A stretch of DNA of 64,000 nucleotides from Chloroflexota bacterium (GCA_019873625.1 JAIOAW010000004.1:33324-97323); one strand, 5' to 3'. Counted from the stretch's first letter, positions 44,824 through 56,003 are shown. Notes: generated by a model from the sequence alone, not told the origin. Translations and numbers: made by a program.

Positions 44824-44835
44824 GAACATATGTTC
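44824..44835. promoter_or_regulatory. LexA (SOS/Cheo-type) box
   Basis: Perfect GAAC-ATAT-GTTC palindrome in the nrdD/yedF divergent intergenic region. Confidence 0.7.
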
Positions 44836-45650: not shown

Positions 45651-47276
45651 ATGAACGATAGCCCCCCTCAAACCGTCCGAGGAGACGAGGCCCTGGCCCT
45701 GGGCGCCCTGGCTGCCGGCATCGGCCTGGCCGTGGGCTACCCCGGCGCGCCGGCCACGGGCATTTTCGAGGCGCTGGCGCGCCTTTCGGTGCCTGGGCAG
45801 GTTACCCTAGAATGGGCCGCGAATGAAAAGGTGGCCATCGAGATGGCCATCGGCGCCTCCCTCGCGGGCACGCGCGCCTTGGTGATCGTCAAAGGGGTGG
45901 GGCTGAACATCGCCCTGGACCCGCTCGCGACGATGTCTTATGCCGGCTGTCATACGGGGTTGGTCATTGCCGTGGGAGATGACCCCGGCGGCTGGTCCTC
46001 GCAGAACGAACAGGATTCGCGCTGGCTTGCCCGCCTGGCCGAGGTGCCCATCGTAGAGGCCACCGAGACGGCCTCGGCGGCGGCGCTTATGGCCCAGGCC
46101 TTTGCCTGGAGCGAAGGGCTGTACACGCCCGTAATCCTGCGCTTGACGCGCGGCCTAGCCCAAGAGCGCGCCGCCCTGCGCGAACCGCCTTGGCAACTCC
46201 CGCCCGCGCTGGGGCGATTTCTCCGCAAAGAGGATCGGTGGATGGTTTACCCCCGCGTGGTGGTGCGGCGCCGCCACAGCCTGCACCGGCGGCTGCGGTC
46301 GTTCGCGCAGGCGCTCGTCAGTTCGCCGTATGACGCCCTATGCGGCGCAGGAGACCTGGGCATCTTGGCGGCCGGGCACCCCTTTTCAAAGGTGCGCCGC
46401 CTTGTGGAGGGGAATGGGAACATCTCCCTCTTGGGTATGGCTAGCGCCTGGCCCTTGCCCGAGGAGCGGCTCATCCCTTGGATGCGCACCTTGCGCCGCC
46501 TGCTCATCCTCGAGGAGGGCGGGCCGTTCGTCGAGGAGCAAATCCGCGCCCTGGCCCAACGGGCCGGCCTATCTTTGGAAATCTTGGGGCGCGCGAACCG
46601 GGCCATCCCCGAAGAGGGGGAGATCGTCGAAGAGGACCTGCGCAGGGGCCTGATGGCGCTCACCGCCGAAGGGCCTTTTGAACGGGTGAACACATGCACC
46701 GAGCCGCCCATCCCCCCTTCTTCCCTCTGTGAAGATTGCCCTTACCGCCCCACGTTCGAGGCCTTGCGCGCCGCGATGGAACGCCAAGGGGGGCGCGAGC
46801 GCTACCTCGTGGTCGGCGAGACGGGTTGTATGGTGCGGGCCATCCCCACCGGCCTTTTTGACGTGAAGTACTCGCTGGGGTCGGCCTTGGGCATTGCCCT
46901 GGGGCTGGCCCTCTATGAAAGGCACCATCGCGTCATCGCGCTCGTGGGAGATTCCTGCTTTTTCCACAGCGAGGTGAACGCCTTGCCCACCTTAGCCCAA
47001 TGCCGGGCGCCTGTCGCAATCCTCTTGCTGGATAATGGCTCCACGGCGCAGACGGGCGGCCAACCCCACCCCGGCACGCCTTATGACGCGCGGCATTCGC
47101 CAAGGGCGCCGGTGGAAATCGAACGCGTCCTTGCGGCCTACGGCCTGGAGGCGGAGGTCCTTTCGCCCCGCAACCCCTCGGCCTTGCAGGCCGCCTTCGA
47201 GGCGGCGCTTGGCGCCGAAGGGCCAAGGGTGCTCATCGTCCGCGAACCCTGCCCACGCTACCGCCAGGGAGGGTGA
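45651..47276 (+). CDS. Indolepyruvate:ferredoxin oxidoreductase alpha-subunit-like TPP enzyme
   Basis: GDEALALGAL..G....GYPGAPAT.I, NEKVAIE.A.GASLAG, K.VGLNIALD, SSQNEQDSR, LCEDCPYR, GDSCFFHS...LDNGSTAQTGGQPHPGT. Confidence 0.85.
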   Translation: MNDSPPQTVRGDEALALGALAAGIGLAVGYPGAPATGIFEALARLSVPGQVTLEWAANEKVAIEMAIGASLAGTRALVIVKGVGLNIALDPLATMSYAGCHTGLVIAVGDDPGGWSSQNEQDSRWLARLAEVPIVEATETASAAALMAQAFAWSEGLYTPVILRLTRGLAQERAALREPPWQLPPALGRFLRKEDRWMVYPRVVVRRRHSLHRRLRSFAQALVSSPYDALCGAGDLGILAAGHPFSKVRRLVEGNGNISLLGMASAWPLPEERLIPWMRTLRRLLILEEGGPFVEEQIRALAQRAGLSLEILGRANRAIPEEGEIVEEDLRRGLMALTAEGPFERVNTCTEPPIPPSSLCEDCPYRPTFEALRAAMERQGGRERYLVVGETGCMVRAIPTGLFDVKYSLGSALGIALGLALYERHHRVIALVGDSCFFHSEVNALPTLAQCRAPVAILLLDNGSTAQTGGQPHPGTPYDARHSPRAPVEIERVLAAYGLEAEVLSPRNPSALQAAFEAALGAEGPRVLIVREPCPRYRQGG

Positions 47277-47278
47277 CT

Positions 47279-48568
47279 ATGGGCGCGACCTTTTTGCACG
47301 CCGCCGATGTGCACTTGGGGTATGAGCAGTATAACTGCCCTGAGCGATATGACGATTTCGCCCGCGCCTTTGAGCACCTCGTTCACGAGGCCATCCAACG
47401 GCGGGTGGATGCGCTCCTTCTGGCCGGGGACCTTTTCCACAAGCGCACCCTCGAGCCGCGCACCCTTTTGCAGGCCAGTTACTTCCTGCAAACCCTGCGT
47501 GAGGCGGGCATCCCCGTCATCGCCGTGGAGGGCAACCATGACCGCCCGCGCTTTCATAACGAACTTTCCTGGTTGGATTACCTCGCCGAACTCGGCCTGC
47601 TCACGCTCCTCGCCCCTTCTCTCGAGGGGAATCGGGTTACCCTCACCCCTTGGGATCCCGCCACGCGCCAAGGGGCCTATATAGACCTCCCCTGCGGCTT
47701 GCGCGTGGTGGGCTGCCCGTACTACGGCGCGAGCACCCCGCGCGTCTTACGAGAGATGGCCGAACCACTCCACACGCTGCGCGCGCAGGGTGGCGCGCCG
47801 TTTACTGCGCTCCTCATCCACGCCGGGTTGCAGGGCATCCTCGATGAATACGCCGGCACCCTCACCCGGCAAGACCTGGAGCCTCTGCGCGGCGCGATAG
47901 ATTACGTGGCCCTCGGGCACATCCACAAGCCCTTCATCCAGGATGATTGGCTCTATAACCCCGGCTCTTTGGAGACGAACAGCGTGGACGAGGCCGGTTG
48001 GGACGATCGGGGCTATTTTTACGTGGAGGTGGAGCCTTCTCGCCGCCCGGCGCACCGCGCGCAGGCCATCCGCGGGCGACGTCGGCCTTTTTTGCGATTC
48101 TCCTTCGCGGTGGACGCCTACCGCTCGCCCGAGGTGCTCGAAGAGGCCCTCCTCGCCTTTCTCGATCGCCAAACCTCCGAGGCCATCCGCCGCGAAAGGC
48201 CCGTGGTCGAACTCGCCCTGCGAGGCGTGCTCGCCTTTGACGCGGCGCGCCTCGAACTCGCCCGCCTGGAGGAATTCGTTCGCGAACGCTTTCAGGCCGT
48301 GTATTGCCATTTGCGCAACCTCACCGCGCCCACGGCCTTCGAGGTTTCACCGACGGAGGAGATGACCCGAGATGAGTTGGAGCGCTACGTCTTGCAGGAA
48401 CTCATCTCGCGGGATGCCCAACGCCAGCCCCAGAGCGAGCGTTGGGCGCGGCTCCTCCTTGACCTCAAACGCCTCGGGCTGGAAGAACGGCCGCCCGAGG
48501 AGGTCATCGCCCTGTTAGAGGGCGCCCTCGGCGAGATCGAACCTCTTGAAGGGGATGCCGAATGCTGA
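47279..48568 (+). CDS. Mre11/SbcD-family DNA repair nuclease
   Basis: FLHAADVHLG, LLAGDLFH, VEGNHD, HAG, YVALGHIHK...YNPGSLE phosphoesterase motifs. Confidence 0.93.
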   Translation: MGATFLHAADVHLGYEQYNCPERYDDFARAFEHLVHEAIQRRVDALLLAGDLFHKRTLEPRTLLQASYFLQTLREAGIPVIAVEGNHDRPRFHNELSWLDYLAELGLLTLLAPSLEGNRVTLTPWDPATRQGAYIDLPCGLRVVGCPYYGASTPRVLREMAEPLHTLRAQGGAPFTALLIHAGLQGILDEYAGTLTRQDLEPLRGAIDYVALGHIHKPFIQDDWLYNPGSLETNSVDEAGWDDRGYFYVEVEPSRRPAHRAQAIRGRRRPFLRFSFAVDAYRSPEVLEEALLAFLDRQTSEAIRRERPVVELALRGVLAFDAARLELARLEEFVRERFQAVYCHLRNLTAPTAFEVSPTEEMTRDELERYVLQELISRDAQRQPQSERWARLLLDLKRLGLEERPPEEVIALLEGALGEIEPLEGDAEC

Positions 48569-51285
48569 TCGAGCAACTCGAGTTGGAGAATTTCAAGAGT
48601 TACGTCCACGCCGTCATCCCCCTGGCGCCGGGCACGAATGCCATCGTCGGGGCGAACGGCGCGGGCAAGAGCAGCCTCCTCGAGGCGCTGGGGTTTGCCC
48701 TGTTTGGCGTCATCCCCGATGGGTTCAAACTGGCCAACCTCCTCCGCGAGGGGAGCACGGTTGGGCGCGTGGTCATCACCCTATGCTCCTCCGCCGACGA
48801 GCGCCGCTACGAGGTGGAGCGGAGTTTCAACGCCAACACGACGACGCGCTACCGCGTGTATGACCTCGAACTGGGGCGCGCCATTGTGGCCGAGGGGCAA
48901 GAGGCCGTGGCGAATTGGATGCGCTACCATCTGCGCATGGAGCCTTCGGCGAACCTAGGGCAGTTTTTTGAAAACACCATCGGCGTGCCTCAGGGGACCT
49001 TCACCACGCCCTTTTTACAAGCGGCTAGAGAGCGCAAGACCATCTTCGATGCGCTCCTACAGGTGGAGGATTACCGCAGGGCGAGCGAAAAACTTTTGGA
49101 TGCCGAACGGTTCCTCGAGGGGCGCCTCAACGCGCTCGAGCGCGATATGGCCCGCCTTGAGGGGGAATTGAGCAGCCTCCCGGCCCTGGAGGAAGAGGCC
49201 CAGGCGCTCGCCGAGCGCATCGCCGCCCTTGGGGAGGAGGAAAAGGCCTCACGTGAGGCGCTGCATCGGGCCGAAGAGGCGCTTGCCGCCTATGAAGAAG
49301 CCGAAAAGCGCCTGCAAGAGGCGCAAAGCCGCTTCGAGCAGGCCCGCGAGCGCCTCCGCGCGCAGGAGGGCCTCGTTCAAGAGGCCGAGCGCGCCGTGGC
49401 CGAGGCCGAAGAGGCGGCGCGCGTCGTAGAAGAGACGCACGCCGACCATAAGGCCTTCCTTGAGGCAGAGGCGCGTTGGGGCGCCCTGGAGGAGGCCCGC
49501 CGCACGCGAGACGCCCTTCGGGAGGAGAGAAACGCCCTCCTGCGCGAGCGCGACCAGATCTCCTTCGAGCGCGCCCAAGCGCTCAAACGCCTTCAAGAAC
49601 TGAGGGAAATCGCCGCCGCCCTGGAAGCGCTTGCGCCCGCAGTGGCCGAACAGGAGCGCCTCGAAGGGGCCTTGGAAGAGGCCAAACGGCGCTGTTTGGA
49701 ATATGAACAGGTGGCCAAACAACTGGCCGATGGGGAGGCCCAAGTGGCCTCCGCCCAAAGGGAAGCCGAGCGCCTGGCCCAAGAGGCGGCGCGGGCCGCC
49801 GCCCTGGCCCAAGAGATTACGGCCCTCCAAGCCGAGGCCCAAGCGCGGCGCGAGGAGGCCGGCCAAGCGGCTTCCCACTTGGCCGTGCTCTCGGCAGAAC
49901 GGGCGCGCCTAGAGAGCCAGTCGGAGGCGCTCCGGCAGGCCCAAGAGGCGCGCTGCCCGGTGTGCGAATCGGAACTCGCCCCCGAGCGCCGCGATGAACT
50001 CTTGGCGCGCAACGCCCAGCGCATCGCCGAGTTAGAAGGGAAAGAGGCAGAAGCCGCCCGCCTCCGCCGCGAAGCGGAACGCGCCGCCCAAAAGGCCGAA
50101 GCGGAGGCCGCCCGCCTGCAAAAGGAGCGCGAGCGCCTGGCCGGAGAGGCGGAAAGCGCGCGCGCACGCCAGCGTTTGGCCGATCTCGAAGGGCGCTGTG
50201 CCCAAGCCCGCCGTGCCCTCGAGACCCTGGCCGATGCCCCCGCCGCGCGCGAGGCCCTTTCGGCGCAACTCCAGGCCCTGGGGAACCCGCGCCAGCAGGC
50301 CCACCTGTATGCGGCCCAACTCCGCGAGCGCCCCCGCCTTGAAGAGGAATCCGCCCGGTTGGAGGGCGCCTTAGGCGCCCTCGCTACGCGCCTCGAAGCG
50401 CTGGAGGGGGAACTTGCCGCCTACGAACGTTTGGATGACGAACTGGCCGCCCTCCGCGCGGAACGCGAGCGGCACCGCGCCGGGCATGAGCGCTACCTGG
50501 CCCATGCGCACACCGCTGGCCAACGGGAACCCCGCCGCGCCGCGCTGGAGGAACGCCTGAAGGCGCGCGAGGCGGCCCAAAGGGCGCTTGAGGCGCTGGC
50601 CGCCCAGGTGGCGGAGGCCCAGGCCGCTTACGATGGGGCGGCGCACCGCGCGGCGCGCGAGCGGTTCCTCGCCCTGCGCGATGAGGCCTCGCGCTTGGCC
50701 GCCGAACGCGCCGCCAAAGAGGCGCGCCACCGGCAGGTGCTCGAGCACATCCAAGCCCTTTACGCCCGCCGTGAGGAACTGGCGCGCCAGAAGCGGGAGC
50801 ACGCTCGCACCGCACACCTACGCCAAACGCTCAAGTGGGCGCGCAACCTGTTGCGCGAGGCCGGGCCGTACATCACCCGGCAGTTGGTGCGGCGCATCTC
50901 GCACGAGGCCTCGACCCTTTACGGCGATATTATGGGAGATTACAGCGGCCATCTGGAATGGTCCGAGGATTACGAACTCGCGCTGGAGGTGCGGGGCAAT
51001 CGCCGCACCTTCCGCCAACTTTCTGGGGGCGAGCAGATGTGCGCGGCGCTTGCCCTGCGTTTGGCGCTCTTGCGCGAAATGTCGCATATTGATATCGCCT
51101 TTTTCGATGAGCCGACCACGAACTTGGATGCCGACCGGCGCGAGGGTTTGGCCGAACGCATTATGCAGGTGCGCGGCTTTACTCAACTTTTCGTCATCAG
51201 CCACGATGATACCTTTGAGCGCGCTGCCCAGAATTTCATCCGCATCGTCAAAGATGCCTCCGGCAGCCGTGTGGAGACGGCCTAA
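48562..51285 (+). CDS. Rad50/SbcC-family ATPase with zinc hook
   Basis: NFKSY, GANGAGKSS, central CPVC zinc hook in coiled coil, LSGGEQ, FFDEPTTNLD, VISHD; 907 aa. Confidence 0.94.
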   Translation: MLIEQLELENFKSYVHAVIPLAPGTNAIVGANGAGKSSLLEALGFALFGVIPDGFKLANLLREGSTVGRVVITLCSSADERRYEVERSFNANTTTRYRVYDLELGRAIVAEGQEAVANWMRYHLRMEPSANLGQFFENTIGVPQGTFTTPFLQAARERKTIFDALLQVEDYRRASEKLLDAERFLEGRLNALERDMARLEGELSSLPALEEEAQALAERIAALGEEEKASREALHRAEEALAAYEEAEKRLQEAQSRFEQARERLRAQEGLVQEAERAVAEAEEAARVVEETHADHKAFLEAEARWGALEEARRTRDALREERNALLRERDQISFERAQALKRLQELREIAAALEALAPAVAEQERLEGALEEAKRRCLEYEQVAKQLADGEAQVASAQREAERLAQEAARAAALAQEITALQAEAQARREEAGQAASHLAVLSAERARLESQSEALRQAQEARCPVCESELAPERRDELLARNAQRIAELEGKEAEAARLRREAERAAQKAEAEAARLQKERERLAGEAESARARQRLADLEGRCAQARRALETLADAPAAREALSAQLQALGNPRQQAHLYAAQLRERPRLEEESARLEGALGALATRLEALEGELAAYERLDDELAALRAERERHRAGHERYLAHAHTAGQREPRRAALEERLKAREAAQRALEALAAQVAEAQAAYDGAAHRAARERFLALRDEASRLAAERAAKEARHRQVLEHIQALYARREELARQKREHARTAHLRQTLKWARNLLREAGPYITRQLVRRISHEASTLYGDIMGDYSGHLEWSEDYELALEVRGNRRTFRQLSGGEQMCAALALRLALLREMSHIDIAFFDEPTTNLDADRREGLAERIMQVRGFTQLFVISHDDTFERAAQNFIRIVKDASGSRVETA

Positions 51286-51287
51286 CG

Positions 51288-52472
51288 ATGCTCAGCCCAC
51301 CCCATGTCCTCGCCGCGCTCGAAGCGAAGCGCGCCGCCTTTGAAGGCTACGAACTGCGCACTGGCCAGGCCCTCGAGCACTATCGCCAAGCCCTGGCCTG
51401 GTTCGCCGGCCAAGAGTATGCCTCCCTCAGAGCGCGCCTGGCGGGTTCGGCGGCCCCCGGTGCGCGCCCCAGTTGCGAGCGGGAGGCAGGGCGGCCCTTC
51501 ATCCGCCCCTTTGGCCTCACGTGGGAGCATCACGCCCAGGCCCGCGCTTGGGCTATGGAGGTCCTTCGCGGCGTCATCACCGCCGCGGTGGATGGCTCGC
51601 AGATTACGCCGAGCGCGGATTTCTCCATCCCCGTGGGGGCCGTGCAGGTGGGTTGGTTCGTCAACCCCCATCGGGAGGGGGCGCCCTATATCAAAGATTT
51701 GGCCTTTGAGGTGCTGGCCCCCGCCGAACTCCAGCCCGGCCAAGAGATGGCCGAGCGTGAATTCCCAGACCTACAAGTGAACTTGCGCCGCTTTGAGCGG
51801 GAGTGCGCCCAACTTATCCGCTTGATGGAGCGCTTCCAGCGGGAGGGGGCCAAGGCGCTCTGCTTTTTCGATGGGTCGCTCGTGATCTCTTTTGCGGGGC
51901 ATATGCGGCCCGAACTACGCGCCCGGTATATAGATGCCATCGTCGCGCTCATCGAGGCCTCCGAACGGACGCGCATCCCCCTCGTGGGGTATATTGATAC
52001 GTCTCACGCCGCCGACCTGACGGCTATGCTCGACTACCTGTTGGGCCGTTCGCCCGCTGCCCGCCCGAGCGACGCCTCCCTTTTGCGCCGCGAGATGGCC
52101 TGGGGAGACCGCACCGAGGCCTTGCAGTGTGCCCGGCAAGACCTCGTCTTTGACGAGGGCGTTCGCCCTAGTTATTACGAGCGCGTCTATTTTGTCTATC
52201 TGAAGACGACCTCCGAAAACGCGCCGGCCCGGCTAGATCTGCCCGGTTGGATTGTGGAAGAGGGCCTGCTGGGTTGGGTGCTTGATGTGGTGCGCGCCGA
52301 ATGCGTCGTGGGCACGGGGTACCCCTATGCCCTTGAGACGGCGGATGCCCTGGCGGTGATCACCACCCCAGATCGGGAACGATTCTACCGCCTGTGCCAA
52401 GAGTTCTTGGCGCAAAGCCAAATCCCCTTGCGTTATTCGCGCAAGGCTTACAGCAAGCGGAGCAGGCGCTGA
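51288..52472 (+). CDS. nurA: NurA-family 5'-3' nuclease
   Basis: AAVDGSQ, FFDGSL and GYPYALETAD.LA motifs; located between rad50 and herA. Confidence 0.85.
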   Translation: MLSPPHVLAALEAKRAAFEGYELRTGQALEHYRQALAWFAGQEYASLRARLAGSAAPGARPSCEREAGRPFIRPFGLTWEHHAQARAWAMEVLRGVITAAVDGSQITPSADFSIPVGAVQVGWFVNPHREGAPYIKDLAFEVLAPAELQPGQEMAEREFPDLQVNLRRFERECAQLIRLMERFQREGAKALCFFDGSLVISFAGHMRPELRARYIDAIVALIEASERTRIPLVGYIDTSHAADLTAMLDYLLGRSPAARPSDASLLRREMAWGDRTEALQCARQDLVFDEGVRPSYYERVYFVYLKTTSENAPARLDLPGWIVEEGLLGWVLDVVRAECVVGTGYPYALETADALAVITTPDRERFYRLCQEFLAQSQIPLRYSRKAYSKRSRR

Positions 52473-52493
52473 ACTTGCAGGGAGTGCGAGGCG

Positions 52494-53081
52494 ATGATCG
52501 GCAAGATCACCAGTTCGAGTTCGCATATCACCTATGTGTGCCAAGTCTATGGCGAGCGCGAGGTGCCCAACCCCCCGCGCGCCGAAGAGTACGGGTTCGG
52601 CACCTTCGTGGGCATCTCTCAACGCGGGGGCGGTTACCTTGTGGGGGTCATCTCCAATACGACCCTCCTCAACCCCGAGTTCGGCACCTTGGGGCCGCGC
52701 CTCTCGCCGGAGGCGGATTTGGCCGTCTTTGCGCCCGATTACCTCTCTGAAAAGTTGACGCTCGTCTCCATCACCATCCTTGGCGCGGTGGATGACGCCG
52801 GCCGCGTGACCCAAGGGGTGCCCACCGTCGCCGCCGAGATAGATGCCCCCGTGCGGCGCCTCACGCAAGAGGAGATCATCGCCTTCCACCGCGCGGGCGG
52901 TTCTTTGCAAATCGCTTATCTGCCGATGTTGTTGAATAACGCCTCCAAGGACCCCCTGATGGGGGCCTTGGCGCTCGACCTCATCGGCCAACTGGAACGG
53001 CTTTTCCCCGAAGAGGGTTCCCGCCTGGCCCTTTTGAAGGGGAACGTCGCCTGGCGCGCCCGCGTCGAACCGTTAGGGTAA
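52494..53081 (+). CDS. Stand-alone HAS-barrel-like protein
   Basis: MIGKITSSSS...YGFGTFV...LVGVISN...L.NPE...APDYL beta-barrel pattern parallels the HerA N-terminal HAS barrel; no ATPase motifs. Confidence 0.65.
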   Translation: MIGKITSSSSHITYVCQVYGEREVPNPPRAEEYGFGTFVGISQRGGGYLVGVISNTTLLNPEFGTLGPRLSPEADLAVFAPDYLSEKLTLVSITILGAVDDAGRVTQGVPTVAAEIDAPVRRLTQEEIIAFHRAGGSLQIAYLPMLLNNASKDPLMGALALDLIGQLERLFPEEGSRLALLKGNVAWRARVEPLG

Positions 53082-53094
53082 AGAGGAGGGGACG

Positions 53095-54789
53095 ATGCTC
53101 CAGGAACCCATCGGCACCACCAAGGGGCCGGGCGAAACGCCCCACGAATATACCTTTATCACGCGAGATCCCGACCAGCGCGTGAAATATGGCGAGTTCG
53201 TGTACTATTGTGCGCCGGTTGAGGGCGAGAGGCGCGAGATCTTGGCCCGCGTCAGCCGGCGCGAACCGATCCGCCTTTACCCCGATACCTTTTTGGCGGA
53301 CCCCTCCGTGCCCCCGCAGGAACTAGGGCGCCTGCTGGGGTACGATCAACCCGCGGACCTCTTTCAAATCACCGCCACCATCCTCGGCTATTACGACCAA
53401 ACCCTGGGCTTCGTCAACCCGCGCACGCCGCCCCCGGCCGGCACGCCCATCTACATCGCGCCCGATGAAATGTTGCGGGCCGTCCTATGCCGGCGCCAGG
53501 TGGGCGAGGAGGGTGCCATCCACGTGGGGTCGCTGCTCAGCCGCGCCCGAGACCGCGTGCCCGTCGTGCTCGATGCACGGGGATTCACGAGCACGCACCT
53601 GGCCATCATCGCCTCCACCGGTTCCGGCAAGAGTTACCTGGCTGGGGTCATCTTAGAGGAGTTGATGAAGCCCACCACCCGCGCCGCCGTGCTCGTGGTG
53701 GACCCCCACGCCGAGTATCACACCCTCGCCGAGATGGAGAACCTCCCCGCCTTTGCCGCGGAGGGCTATCGCCCTCGCGTCAAGGTCATCCGCCCCGACG
53801 ATATCAGGGTGCGCGTCTCCTCGTTGGATTTGGGCGACCTACGCTACCTTCTCCCCAACCTTTCGGAGCGGATGCACTACCTCTTGGGGCAGGCCTACCG
53901 CCGGGTGCGGCGGGAATATGGCGACAAGTGGACCCGCGCCCATCTGCGTATGGCCATCCGCCAGGGTATAGGAGATAAAGACGCGCCCCCGCCCGAGGAG
54001 GAGGGCACAGATGAGGATTCCACCGTGGGCGCGCTCATTTGGCGGGTGAATTCCATCCTCGAGAGCAAGATCTTTGACGATTTCGTCAGCCTCCCCTTAG
54101 GGGACCTCTTTTGCCCTGGCCAATGCACCATCTTGCAGTTGAACGAAATCGCCGAACGCGAACAACAGATCGTGGTGGCCACGCTCCTACGGCGCCTGAA
54201 CCAGGCCCGCGTAGAGACGGTGGGCGGCCGCACCCAACCCGGAGACGAGTACTACCTCCCTTACCCCGCCTTTGTGATGATCGAAGAGGCGCACCGCTTT
54301 GCCCCCGCCAACGCCGAGATCATCACAACGAACATCCTAAAGCAAATCCTCTCCGAAGGGCGCAAGTTCGGCGTGGCCGTGGGGTTGATCAGCCAGCGCC
54401 CGGGCAAACTCGATAGCGACGTCCTCTCGCAATGTATGACGCAGTGCATTATGCGCATCGTCAACCCGGTTGATCAGGCGCGCATCGCCGAAAGCGTGGA
54501 ATCGGTGGGGAGGGACCTCTTGATGGAACTGCCCGGCCTCACCAAAGGGCAGGTGATCATCGCAGGCACCTCCGTGAATACGCCCCTCCTCGCCCAGGTG
54601 CGCCAGCGCCTGACGCGCCACGGCGCCGAAGATCCCGACGCCCCGCGCCAGTGGCAGGCTTTCTTCCGCGAGGAAAACGTGGCCCAACGCGCGCGCGACG
54701 AGGCCTTGCCCGTGGGCGAACGGCGCCCCGCAGGCCGCGGGCGCCTGTTCAAGGCCACCGATGCGGATGGCGAACCTTTGCCCTTCTAA
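53095..54789 (+). CDS. herA: HerA-family hexameric helicase/translocase
   Basis: N-terminal HAS barrel, HLAIIASTGSGKS, VVDPHAEY, MIEEAHRFAP, EGRKFG..LISQRPGKLDSDVLSQC. Confidence 0.92.
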   Translation: MLQEPIGTTKGPGETPHEYTFITRDPDQRVKYGEFVYYCAPVEGERREILARVSRREPIRLYPDTFLADPSVPPQELGRLLGYDQPADLFQITATILGYYDQTLGFVNPRTPPPAGTPIYIAPDEMLRAVLCRRQVGEEGAIHVGSLLSRARDRVPVVLDARGFTSTHLAIIASTGSGKSYLAGVILEELMKPTTRAAVLVVDPHAEYHTLAEMENLPAFAAEGYRPRVKVIRPDDIRVRVSSLDLGDLRYLLPNLSERMHYLLGQAYRRVRREYGDKWTRAHLRMAIRQGIGDKDAPPPEEEGTDEDSTVGALIWRVNSILESKIFDDFVSLPLGDLFCPGQCTILQLNEIAEREQQIVVATLLRRLNQARVETVGGRTQPGDEYYLPYPAFVMIEEAHRFAPANAEIITTNILKQILSEGRKFGVAVGLISQRPGKLDSDVLSQCMTQCIMRIVNPVDQARIAESVESVGRDLLMELPGLTKGQVIIAGTSVNTPLLAQVRQRLTRHGAEDPDAPRQWQAFFREENVAQRARDEALPVGERRPAGRGRLFKATDADGEPLPF

Positions 54790-54794
54790 AAGCG

Positions 54795-54830
54795 AACGGG
54801 CTTGGCAGGGCGCCCTGCCAAACCCGTTTT
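54795..54830 (+). terminator. Rho-independent terminator after herA
   Basis: AACGGGcTTGGCAGGG-cg-CCCTGCCAAaCCCGTT followed by TT; lies between convergent genes. Confidence 0.65.
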
Positions 54831-54907: not shown

Positions 54908-55468
54908 TTACCCCGTGCGGCGGGCCGCCTCTTGGGGCGGCTCGGCGGCCTCCGAGGATTCTTCTAGGCCGTCATTATTCTCCCCAGGGGGGCGCTCGCC
55001 TTGGGCGATGGCGAGTTGTTCGCGCCGGTGCGCCTCGAGGACGCTGATGCCGTTGGCGATGACGCGGCGCAGATATTCGACCTGATCGGCCAACTCGCGC
55101 AGGGTTCGCGCGGCGTATTCATCGGCATCCGCACGGATGCGCGCCGCCCGCTCCTCGGCCTCCTTTAGGATCATCTCGGCCTGCTCTTCGGCCTGGCGGC
55201 GGATGTCGTGCTCATCCAAAAGGCGCGCCGCATCTTCGCGCGCTTGGGCGATGAGGTGCTCTGCCTCTTCCTGGGCCTTGGCGATCAAGCGGTCGCGTTC
55301 CAGTTCGAAATCTTGGGCGCGCTTGATCTCTTGGGGCACGACGATCCACATCTGGGCGATGATCTTGCGAAAGGCATCGCCATCTACAGCCACGCGCCGG
55401 CTGAAGGGTAAGCGCCACCCCGCGCCCACCAATTCTTCAAGGCGATCCAGCAATTGCAAGATGTCTAT
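54908..55468 (-). CDS. Conserved coiled-coil protein downstream of coaD (DivIVA/ATP-synthase-b-like), probable ATA start
   Basis: (I/M)DILQLLDRLEELV...VAVD...I.QM...VPQEIKRA...A..EA coiled coil. RBS AAAGGGGGGG lies 5 nt before ATA. Confidence 0.75.
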   Translation of the reverse strand: MDILQLLDRLEELVGAGWRLPFSRRVAVDGDAFRKIIAQMWIVVPQEIKRAQDFELERDRLIAKAQEEAEHLIAQAREDAARLLDEHDIRRQAEEQAEMILKEAEERAARIRADADEYAARTLRELADQVEYLRRVIANGISVLEAHRREQLAIAQGERPPGENNDGLEESSEAAEPPQEAARRTG

Positions 55469-55496
55469 GGCGACCCCCCCTTTCCGCAGCCCTGCC

Positions 55497-56003
55497 TCAC
55501 TGAGGCGCGCTCGCCGCGAGCCTTCGCGCCGCCGCGCGGGCCTTGAGCGCCGCCTCGACGTGAGGGGGCACAAATTGGAGCACCGATCCACCCGCCATGG
55601 CGATATCTTTGACGATGGTCGAACTTACAAAGGCGTACTCTAGGCTGGTCATCAGACAGACCATATCGAGTTCCGGGGCGAGTTTGCGCGTCGTAAGGGC
55701 CATTTGATATTCGACCTCGAAGTCGGAAATCACCCTCAGCCCCCGCACTAGGACGCGCGCACCCTGGCGCCGTGCAAAATCCGCCGTCAACCCCGAATAA
55801 GAGAGCACTTCCACGTTCGCCACATTGGCCAGGGCCTCGCGCGCCATCTGCACGCGCTCTTCCGTGGCGAACATCACGCTTTTCTGCGGGCGATCATAGA
55901 CGCCCACGATCAGTTTGTCAAACAGTTCCGCTGCCCTTTGGGCGATATCAATGTGCCCATAGTGGATCGGATCGAACGTGCCGGGGTACACTGCGATGGT
56001 CAA
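55497..56003 (-). CDS. coaD: Phosphopantetheine adenylyltransferase
   Basis: AVYPGTFDPIHYGHIDI, LVRGLRVISDFEVEYQMA, VSSTIVKDIA; TTG start. Confidence 0.96.
   Translation of the reverse strand: MTIAVYPGTFDPIHYGHIDIAQRAAELFDKLIVGVYDRPQKSVMFATEERVQMAREALANVANVEVLSYSGLTADFARRQGARVLVRGLRVISDFEVEYQMALTTRKLAPELDMVCLMTSLEYAFVSSTIVKDIAMAGGSVLQFVPPHVEAALKARAAARRLAASAPQ

Follow-up and report, generated by a model that had tools for sequence, protein, structure and literature searches.

NurA and HerA, together with Mre11 and Rad50, are regarded as the counterpart of RecBCD in archaea. In published structures, the HAS barrel of HerA is the surface on which NurA docks and through which HerA multimerises (PMC9960219, PMC3326311). 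A 2026 review of NurA describes bacterial nurA as lacking stable four-gene co-clustering (PMC13748450). Our literature search turned up neither a conserved mre11-rad50-nurA-herA cluster in bacteria nor a free-standing HAS-barrel partner, although older papers may contain an earlier mention. Here we describe such a cluster, with a fifth gene, in a Chloroflexota bacterium. It occupies positions 47279-54789 of a 64,000-nucleotide stretch of DNA (GCA_019873625.1 JAIOAW010000004.1:33324-97323), which we refer to in full as the window, and holds in order mre11, rad50, nurA, a gene that we call X, and herA. Gene X, a member of the family DUF8166, is the most novel part of the operon.

We read the locus as a chromosomal, vertically inherited operon for DNA-end processing, whose five products would make up a single machine with X as a partner of HerA and with housekeeping repair as its main task. 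We put the probability of this reading at about 60%. The genes and their intact motifs, the kept order, the co-occurrence, the predicted fold of X, and the lack of canonical RecBCD and AddAB are observed here, whereas the physical assembly, the role of X, and the physiological role in repair are inferred.

The operon and its fifth gene

The five open reading frames and the hairpin that follows them are arranged as follows.

47279-48568, plus strand: mre11, 429 amino acids (aa) from the ATG at 47279, with an alternative GTG start at 47273
48562-51285, plus strand: rad50, 907 aa, Rad50-type SMC-like ATPase with a CPVC zinc hook
51288-52472, plus strand: nurA, 394-aa NurA nuclease
52494-53081, plus strand: X, 195 aa, DUF8166 (PF26500), predicted free-standing HAS barrel with a C-terminal helical bundle
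53095-54789, plus strand: herA, 564 aa, HerA hexameric translocase/ATPase with its own N-terminal HAS barrel
54794-54829, plus strand: terminator-like hairpin 3' of herA, running into UUUU at 54827-54830

The genes are spaced by -7, 2, 21 (nurA to X), and 13 (X to herA) nucleotides (nt), and Shine-Dalgarno-like sequences precede mre11 (GGAGG before the ATG at 47279), X, and herA. The hairpin has a 15-bp stem, a minimum free energy of -25.7 kcal/mol (z -2.24), and a short U tract. A consensus terminator scan did not call it, and we regard it as a plausible intrinsic terminator. A first-pass annotation of the window had described five tightly coupled genes with these gaps and a terminator; the layout proved exact and the hairpin fits the terminator. 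The same annotation had called the gene set a complete archaeal-style resection operon. This is supported, as mre11, rad50, nurA, and herA are clustered and co-oriented, have intact motifs, and sit nearer to archaeal repair proteins than to SbcCD or defence HerA.

Four of the five products fall into known Pfam families. Mre11 matches Metallophos (E 1e-15), Rad50 matches SMC_N and Rad50_zn_hook, NurA matches PF09376 (E 5.8e-33), and HerA matches DUF87 (E 8.8e-38). We checked the conservation of their motifs in 33-69 orthologs, the number depending on the protein. The catalytic residues of Mre11 phosphoesterase motifs I-V are invariant in 33 orthologs, except for the motif II histidine (76%), and the Rad50 Walker A and B motifs, Q-loop, signature motif, H-loop, and CxxC are likewise invariant. 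Both DGS motifs and the TAD motif of NurA are invariant in 46 orthologs, as are Walker A and B, EGRKFG, and QRPG of HerA in 69. The first-pass annotation had given Rad50 as about 900 aa with a CPVC hook, which we confirm and place at C465-C468. It had also taken EAHRFAP, EGRKFG, and SQRP in HerA as archaeal-type motifs. All three are present, but they are the Walker B, sensor, and arginine-finger region and are not specific to archaea.

In what sense, then, is the operon archaeal-like? The label refers to score comparisons, all of them below curated cut-offs, and to a partial HerA tree. By this measure Mre11, Rad50, and HerA appear closest to archaeal repair references, with scores 2-3 times higher than those against SbcCD, Deinococcus, or anti-phage HerA. 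Among NCBIfam models, archaeal Mre11 gave 117, 106, and 80 bits compared with 49.4 for sbcD, archaeal Rad50 gave 257, 177, and 143 bits compared with 87.5 for sbcC, and archaeal repair HerA gave 187 and 147 bits compared with 87 and 84 for anti-phage HerA. Searches against PDB sequences ranked the references for Mre11 as P. furiosus (96 bits), M. jannaschii (50), T. maritima (45), and E. coli SbcD (34), and those for Rad50 as M. jannaschii (96), P. furiosus (71), and T. maritima (57). HerA scored 154 bits against T. kodakarensis, 130 against S. solfataricus, and at most 82 against defence HerAs. With the window HerA as query, D. radiodurans HerA was undetected (phmmer against PDB, E 1e-3), and a sequence search with NurA against PDB gave no match. 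Curated NCBIfam cut-offs were reached neither for the archaeal equivalogs (Mre11 117 against 600, Rad50 257 against 700, HerA 187 against 970), nor for SbcCD (sbcC TIGR00618 87.5 against 478.5; sbcD TIGR00619 49.4 against 77.65), nor for anti-phage HerA (NF042943 86.8 against 800; a second model 84 against 850). None of the proteins is therefore an equivalog.

Precomputed Pfam assignments place X and all 120 listed relatives in PF26500 (DUF8166), a model absent from our local Pfam copy. X itself gave no match in the local Pfam, NCBIfam, PADLOC, and PHROGs libraries, and our literature search found no paper that names DUF8166. Clustered at 50% identity, the family forms 345 clusters in a set of 1.84 billion representatives, and almost all are about 195 aa long. 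Its alignment has 37 invariant columns, including an NPxFGxLGPxLS loop at residues 60-71. The AlphaFold2 (AF2) model of X, with a predicted local distance difference test score (pLDDT) of 87.4 and a predicted TM-score of 0.83, has a beta-barrel at its N-terminus (residues 3-122) and helices in its C-terminal part (125-194). When this model was compared with the PDB by Foldseek, the top 50 matches were HerA chains throughout (best E 2.8e-6), with query-normalised TM-scores of 0.38-0.49 over about 127-208 aligned columns. The matched chains come from archaeal repair complexes, from D. radiodurans, and from SIR2-, DUF4297-, and TdpAB-type defence complexes. The AF2 model of the window HerA (pLDDT 80.6) also contains the N-terminal barrel. 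The two models agree almost element for element in the order of secondary structure between X and the HerA N-domain, and a low-confidence loop at about 60-72 is conserved in both. We found no Pfam HAS-barrel match for X, and a profile search against PDB sequences gave nothing meaningful. The predicted fold of X is thus the N-terminal HAS barrel of HerA followed by a helical tail.

What does X work with? When one genome per species was scanned, 226 species had X, and we examined the best 80 loci, all labelled Chloroflexota. In 76 of these 80, X is followed by herA on the same strand (median gap 11 nt), and the pairing holds even where nurA is a megabase away. Because the X-herA linkage is kept even when nurA is distant, HerA is the most likely partner of X. 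Fold and gene linkage together suggest that X is probably an overlooked accessory subunit of HerA. More divergent DUF8166 genes from metagenomes occur in a Rad50-DUF8166-HerA setting and, in one case, as a solitary copy. A metagenome-assembled genome labelled Acidobacteria (L128/L129, 4443-9603) has in a row an AAA_5 (MoxR-like) gene, VWA, NurA, a 153-aa unknown protein, and DUF8166. There, no HerA adjoins and a Mre11-like gene lies nearby on the opposite strand, a different wiring of the same parts.

Further features flank the operon.

45651-47276, plus strand: iorA-like thiamine pyrophosphate (TPP) enzyme gene, TIGR03336 388 bits against a cut-off of 651, abutting mre11
44824-44835, no strand assigned: GAACATATGTTC, a LexA-box-like palindrome between nrdD and yedF; a weak candidate operator
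54908-55591, minus strand: 227-aa open reading frame between herA and recG, downstream of recG on the minus strand

Since the iorA-like gene ends at 47276 and abuts mre11, the transcription unit may begin further upstream. The iorA-like gene is possibly co-transcribed with the operon, although we do not propose it as a part of the machine. In 17 related loci it directly precedes mre11, the median gap being -4 nt. It encodes an orphan TPP enzyme resembling the alpha subunit of indolepyruvate-ferredoxin oxidoreductase, with no adjoining iorB, and is apparently coupled in translation to the DNA-repair operon. The 227-aa open reading frame has no match in Pfam, NCBIfam, PADLOC, or PHROGs and keeps its position in several genomes of the same family (L113, L115, L116, L118).

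Conservation, inheritance, and related cassettes

The operon is a conserved feature of its lineage and not a peculiarity of one genome. The order mre11-rad50-nurA-X-herA is found in 35 of the 80 loci, with the iorA-like gene upstream in 17 of those 35, and the median gaps in related loci are -7, 2, 23.5, and 11 nt. Some of the other loci end at contig edges, some hold only nurA-X-herA (L059, L060, and L069 have no adjacent mre11-rad50), and about 20 of Caldilineae type hold only X-herA. X is present in 19 of the 24 other genera of the host family, and 115 of 121 genomes from the class have a NurA of either type. In a sample of 301 genomes from the phylum, X was found in 69 and Rad50 of the window type in 83; 67 genomes had both, 2 had only X, 16 had only Rad50, and 216 had neither (Fisher p 9e-49, not corrected for shared ancestry). 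In this sample, 24 genomes from 7 families have X no more than about 5 kb from rad50, and 9 genomes from 4 families have both genes on one contig but far apart.

Where the genes are dispersed, they tend to be kept elsewhere on the chromosome. Among 10 such genomes, nurA orthologs (40-45% identity) occur elsewhere in 9, one fragmentary, and five extended nurA loci have no mre11 or rad50 within 9 kb. Full-length rad50 of the window type (33-39% identity) occurs elsewhere in 7 of the 10 and is fragmented in two more. The rad50 of a Caldilineaceae genome (G001:C28:31318-33956) reads through an in-frame TGA and is in pieces, possibly as a pseudogene or through an assembly error.

Outside the phylum, a tblastn search with X against 72,556 plasmids gave four matches, all haloarchaeal, and the same search gave no match in phages. 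Three of the plasmids carry the full order of metallophosphoesterase, SMC ATPase, NurA, hypothetical protein (X), and DUF87 ATPase: those of Natrinema zhouii (NZ_CP084885), halophilic archaeon DL31 (CP002989), and Halobaculum marinum (NZ_CP119991). The fourth has X-HerA at the record boundary. The proteins are collinear with those of the window, at identities of 44% for HerA, 30-34% for X, 32-34% for Mre11, 30-32% for NurA, and 26-30% for Rad50. These genes are annotated as hypothetical or in generic terms, and our literature search found no study of them. In a HerA tree, which is rooted on very long branches and partially sampled, the four haloarchaeal copies form a clade of their own, with 98 in the Shimodaira-Hasegawa-like approximate likelihood-ratio test (SH-aLRT), outside the Chloroflexota clade (97). 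Nothing in the tree points to a recent transfer between haloarchaea and Chloroflexota, whichever the direction. The plasmid surroundings look mobile or defence-like. The Natrinema and DL31 cassettes are preceded by a conserved pair of genes for an ATP-binding protein and a DEAD/DEAH helicase (L133, 1-3176; L134, 1-3368), and the Halobaculum cassette is preceded by a phospholipase D family gene (L135, 129-2195). The helicase pair and the phospholipase D gene may be extra components of the plasmid version.

Could the operon in the window be a recent horizontal acquisition, a mobile island without a settled cellular role? Most other families of the class are without X (0 of 16 carried it in one sample, 1 of about 21 in another), and the cross-domain relatives are plasmid-borne. 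However, the GC content of the operon, 65.5%, is within the normal range of the genome (63.3 +/- 1.9%, 92nd percentile), and no integrase or transposase was seen adjoining it. Genera of the same family share its flanks, with the iorA-like gene upstream and the 227-aa open reading frame and recG downstream. In the HerA tree, the window falls in a clade with its own family (SH-aLRT 98), and the copies of Caldilineaceae, Chloroflexaceae, and the host family each cluster by named taxon, with the haloarchaeal copies outside. The taxon-wise tree, normal GC content, and shared flanks speak for long-standing vertical inheritance rather than a recent island. We therefore reject recent transfer on composition, synteny, and the HerA tree, and consider an island of this kind extremely unlikely.

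A second, distant type of NurA-HerA exists in the same class, in Thermoflexus and others, with about 25% identity to the window type. Its HerA scores about equally on the repair and anti-phage models (61-76 bits), and since these scores show no preference, the archaeal affinity is specific to the window type. The distant type (L120, 9346-13051, Thermoflexus; L121, 9357-14509; L124) likewise carries, between nurA and herA, a gene for a protein of about 200 aa, a remote relative of X and HAS barrels. The Thermoflexus protein aligned with the X profile over 166 columns (hhalign E 1.8e-5), at a probability of only 78%. In another distant-type genome, the protein of about 200 aa has a weak Pfam HAS-barrel match below the curated cut-off. 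The Thermoflexus-type gene hints that small HAS-barrel partners are more general than DUF8166. At L121, a methyltransferase gene is inserted, and an Eco57I-type restriction-modification methylase gene follows herA.

Do the five proteins act as one machine at all? They could instead be two separate modules that share an operon, an SbcCD-equivalent Mre11-Rad50 and a NurA-HerA pair, with X as a regulator of HerA (for example, an assembly chaperone, or an inhibitor capping or competing with the HAS-barrel ring) and not a structural subunit. In at least four families the genes are dispersed on the chromosome yet all retained, so co-transcription is not required. Moreover, the 16 genomes with Rad50 of the window type but no X, and the three loci with NurA-X-HerA apart from mre11-rad50, fit separate modules. 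HerA also keeps a complete HAS barrel of its own, so there is no missing domain for X to supply. Set against this, the five-gene order is kept across at least seven Chloroflexota families and on haloarchaeal plasmids, and X and window-type Rad50 co-occur strongly. The two distant-type NurA-HerA genomes that we checked have no window-type Rad50, and in Sulfolobus, Mre11 is reported to bind HerA physically (PMC2288612). On balance, we think a pair of independent modules quite unlikely.

The host genome and the role of the operon

The window encodes RecG, DnaK, a bacterial-type SMC (SMC_prok_B), YloV, and an anaerobic ribonucleotide reductase; the first four identify the host as a bacterium. We place this uncultured host in the class Anaerolineae; relatives of X are labelled Anaerolineae/Chloroflexota, and Thermoflexus belongs to the same class. 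The genome (2.76 Mb, 97.6% complete) yielded no RecB, AddA, or AdnA at curated cut-offs genome-wide, with the recB and addA models far below, and no RecQ above the cut-off. It is thus without canonical RecBCD, AddAB, AdnAB, or RecQ. One PD-(D/E)XK RecB-type nuclease domain (PDDEXK_1) was found in the whole genome. It belongs to a split operon of overlapping genes on a contig other than that of the window (C3; L086, 3728-9002), which encode a degenerate UvrD-like protein of 716 aa, a UvrD-type helicase of 755 aa, and a stand-alone PD-(D/E)XK nuclease of 287 aa, the only RecB-family nuclease of the genome. In addition, recJ paralogs are present at C2:75519-77111 and C30:29686-31293. One of them lies in an 858-aa open frame, much longer than a typical RecJ.

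The first-pass annotation had proposed checking the genome for recBCD, addAB, and adnAB. None is present in canonical form, but a split AdnAB-like operon and two recJ genes are. With these other candidate enzymes in the genome, the operon is not shown to be the sole resection route. Nor did we find the ordinary SbcCD and full AddAB that the annotation had held would speak against an archaeal-like system, as the SbcCD cut-offs were unreached and no AddA was seen at its cut-off. The window Rad50 is the only gene of the Rad50/SbcC class in the genome and part of its only Rad50/Mre11 pair, and NurA is present in a single copy. As the only one of its class, the window pair probably also serves SbcCD-type duties.

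How might the machine that we propose work? Judging from the known families, Mre11-Rad50 would recognise and trim DNA ends, and a HerA hexamer would translocate duplex DNA into a NurA nuclease dimer. The dimer would dock on the HerA ring of N-terminal HAS barrels and degrade the strands, leaving resected ends for RecA. X, from its fold and linkage, would be a duplicate of the HerA HAS-barrel domain in which a helical tail replaces the ATPase, most likely bound to HerA as an accessory subunit. Such a subunit might add a further ring of barrels, or serve as an adaptor through which NurA (or Mre11-Rad50) is coupled to the motor or gated on it. As its main task, the machine most likely carries out housekeeping repair of double-strand breaks and forks. 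The single-copy, stable, lineage-wide spread in Chloroflexota argues for a core function, and the operon has housekeeping genes such as recG as neighbours.

A contrasting proposal is that the cassette acts mainly against foreign DNA, degrading linear phage or plasmid ends in the manner of RecBCD, with repair secondary at most. The 2026 review assigns bacterial NurA-HerA to defence and describes degradation of both strands by T. kodakarensis HerA-NurA (PMC13748450). Several proven defence systems have HerA as their motor and are also among the fold matches to X. The same five-gene cassette is carried on haloarchaeal megaplasmids, in DL31 beside genes for a transposase, a UvrD helicase, and an adenine methyltransferase, and in Halobaculum after the phospholipase D gene. 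Moreover, the distant NurA-HerA type adjoins restriction-modification methylases at L121. Defence islands, however, are usually patchy and variable, whereas the Chloroflexota copies are single, occur in most genera of the family, follow taxonomy in the HerA tree, and have housekeeping neighbours. The operon has neither a SIR2, DUF4297, or other effector gene beside it nor defence genes on its flanks. PADLOC gave no match for X, NurA, or the flanking open reading frame, and PHROGs gave none for X or NurA. On the anti-phage model HerA reaches 87 bits, compared with 187 on the repair model, and the cassette holds the only Mre11-Rad50 of the genome. A role against foreign DNA is possible; as the main function, we consider it unlikely.

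We also considered control by the SOS response. Within the 64 kb window, GAAC-N4-GTTC occurs in perfect form only at GAACATATGTTC, and at least one such site appeared in 42 of 100 shuffles. The palindrome sits between divergent nrdD and yedF-like genes, upstream of the gene string yedF-iorA-mre11. The motif is absent 5' of the operon in the 80 related loci and in 7 loci of the same family with about 6 kb of upstream sequence. A site of the same form, GAACGCTTGTTC, lies 32 nt 5' of the split helicase-nuclease operon. SOS control of the mre11-herA operon is unsupported, as the box is single and non-conserved, although the same motif precedes that other operon.

Several observations weigh against a housekeeping repair machine with X as a HerA partner. 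With a LexA-like box that is single and non-conserved, induction by damage is unsupported, and the two recJ genes and the split AdnAB-like operon supply other candidate resection enzymes. The nearest copies outside Chloroflexota are plasmid-borne, and the DL31 copy has the transposase, helicase, and methyltransferase neighbours given above. The work on T. kodakarensis HerA-NurA, as the 2026 review presents it, raises a role in degrading foreign DNA (PMC13748450). Concerning X itself, a profile comparison with the HerA N-domain gave no sequence signal (hhalign probability 4.6%), and some divergent DUF8166 genes stand apart from herA (L130, L128).

A bolder version of the proposal can be stated, which we hold tentatively and think somewhat doubtful as a whole. 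DUF8166 would be an obligate third subunit, a detachable ring or adaptor of HAS barrels stacked on HerA that gates or couples the NurA dimer or bridges HerA-NurA to Mre11-Rad50, and would define a class of HerA-NurA found in two domains of life. The five-component apparatus would then be the main route of double-strand-break resection in much of Chloroflexota, where RecBCD and AddAB would be missing, and would also be carried on haloarchaeal megaplasmids.

Comparison with known systems

The enzymes themselves are familiar; what is new is the host range, the fixed five-gene architecture, and an uncharacterised fifth component. The conserved clusters of Chloroflexota contradict, for a large bacterial phylum, the statement that bacterial nurA is without stable co-clustering. 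DUF8166 is an uncharacterised candidate partner for a motor that is under active structural and mechanistic study. If X is indeed a subunit, two-component models of HerA-NurA are incomplete for these lineages.

The closest described systems are those of thermophilic archaea (Sulfolobus/Saccharolobus, Pyrococcus, Thermococcus), in which the same four families are clustered on one strand with intact motifs. The window proteins share with them the Rad50 zinc hook and the HAS barrel and RecA-like core of HerA, and the best scores of Mre11, Rad50, and HerA are to these archaeal proteins and models. In contrast to the archaeal operons, the host here is a mesophile-type anaerobic bacterium, and DUF8166 is present as a fifth gene. 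The gene order also differs, being mre11-rad50-nurA-X-herA here, herA-mre11-rad50-nurA in Sulfolobales, and nurA-rad50-mre11-herA in Thermococcus (PMC13748450). The haloarchaeal megaplasmid cassettes match the window operon in gene order, including the X homolog, and in all five collinear proteins. However, they are plasmid-borne, reside in archaea, and have mobile or defence-like surroundings.

Among bacteria, D. radiodurans and T. thermophilus likewise have a NurA and a HerA hexamer, with NurA on the HAS-barrel ring (PMC9960219). Those systems are two-gene pairs without X and unlinked to mre11-rad50, whereas here X lies between nurA and herA. D. radiodurans HerA is only a fold match to X and has no sequence match to the window HerA. 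Furthermore, the DG motifs of the characterised bacterial NurA proteins are degenerate according to the 2026 review (PMC13748450), whereas both DGS motifs of the window type are invariant.

The anti-phage systems SIR2-HerA/Nezha, DUF4297-HerA, and TdpAB also use a HerA-family hexameric ATPase; its HAS-barrel face holds the effector in those systems, and they are among the fold matches to X. Unlike them, the window operon has no SIR2, DUF4297, or TdpB-type effector, and its spread is stable and lineage-wide rather than patchy. Finally, SbcCD combines the same superfamily pair of a nuclease and an SMC-like ATPase. The window pair differs from SbcCD in its linkage to nurA and herA and in scoring below the sbcC and sbcD cut-offs.

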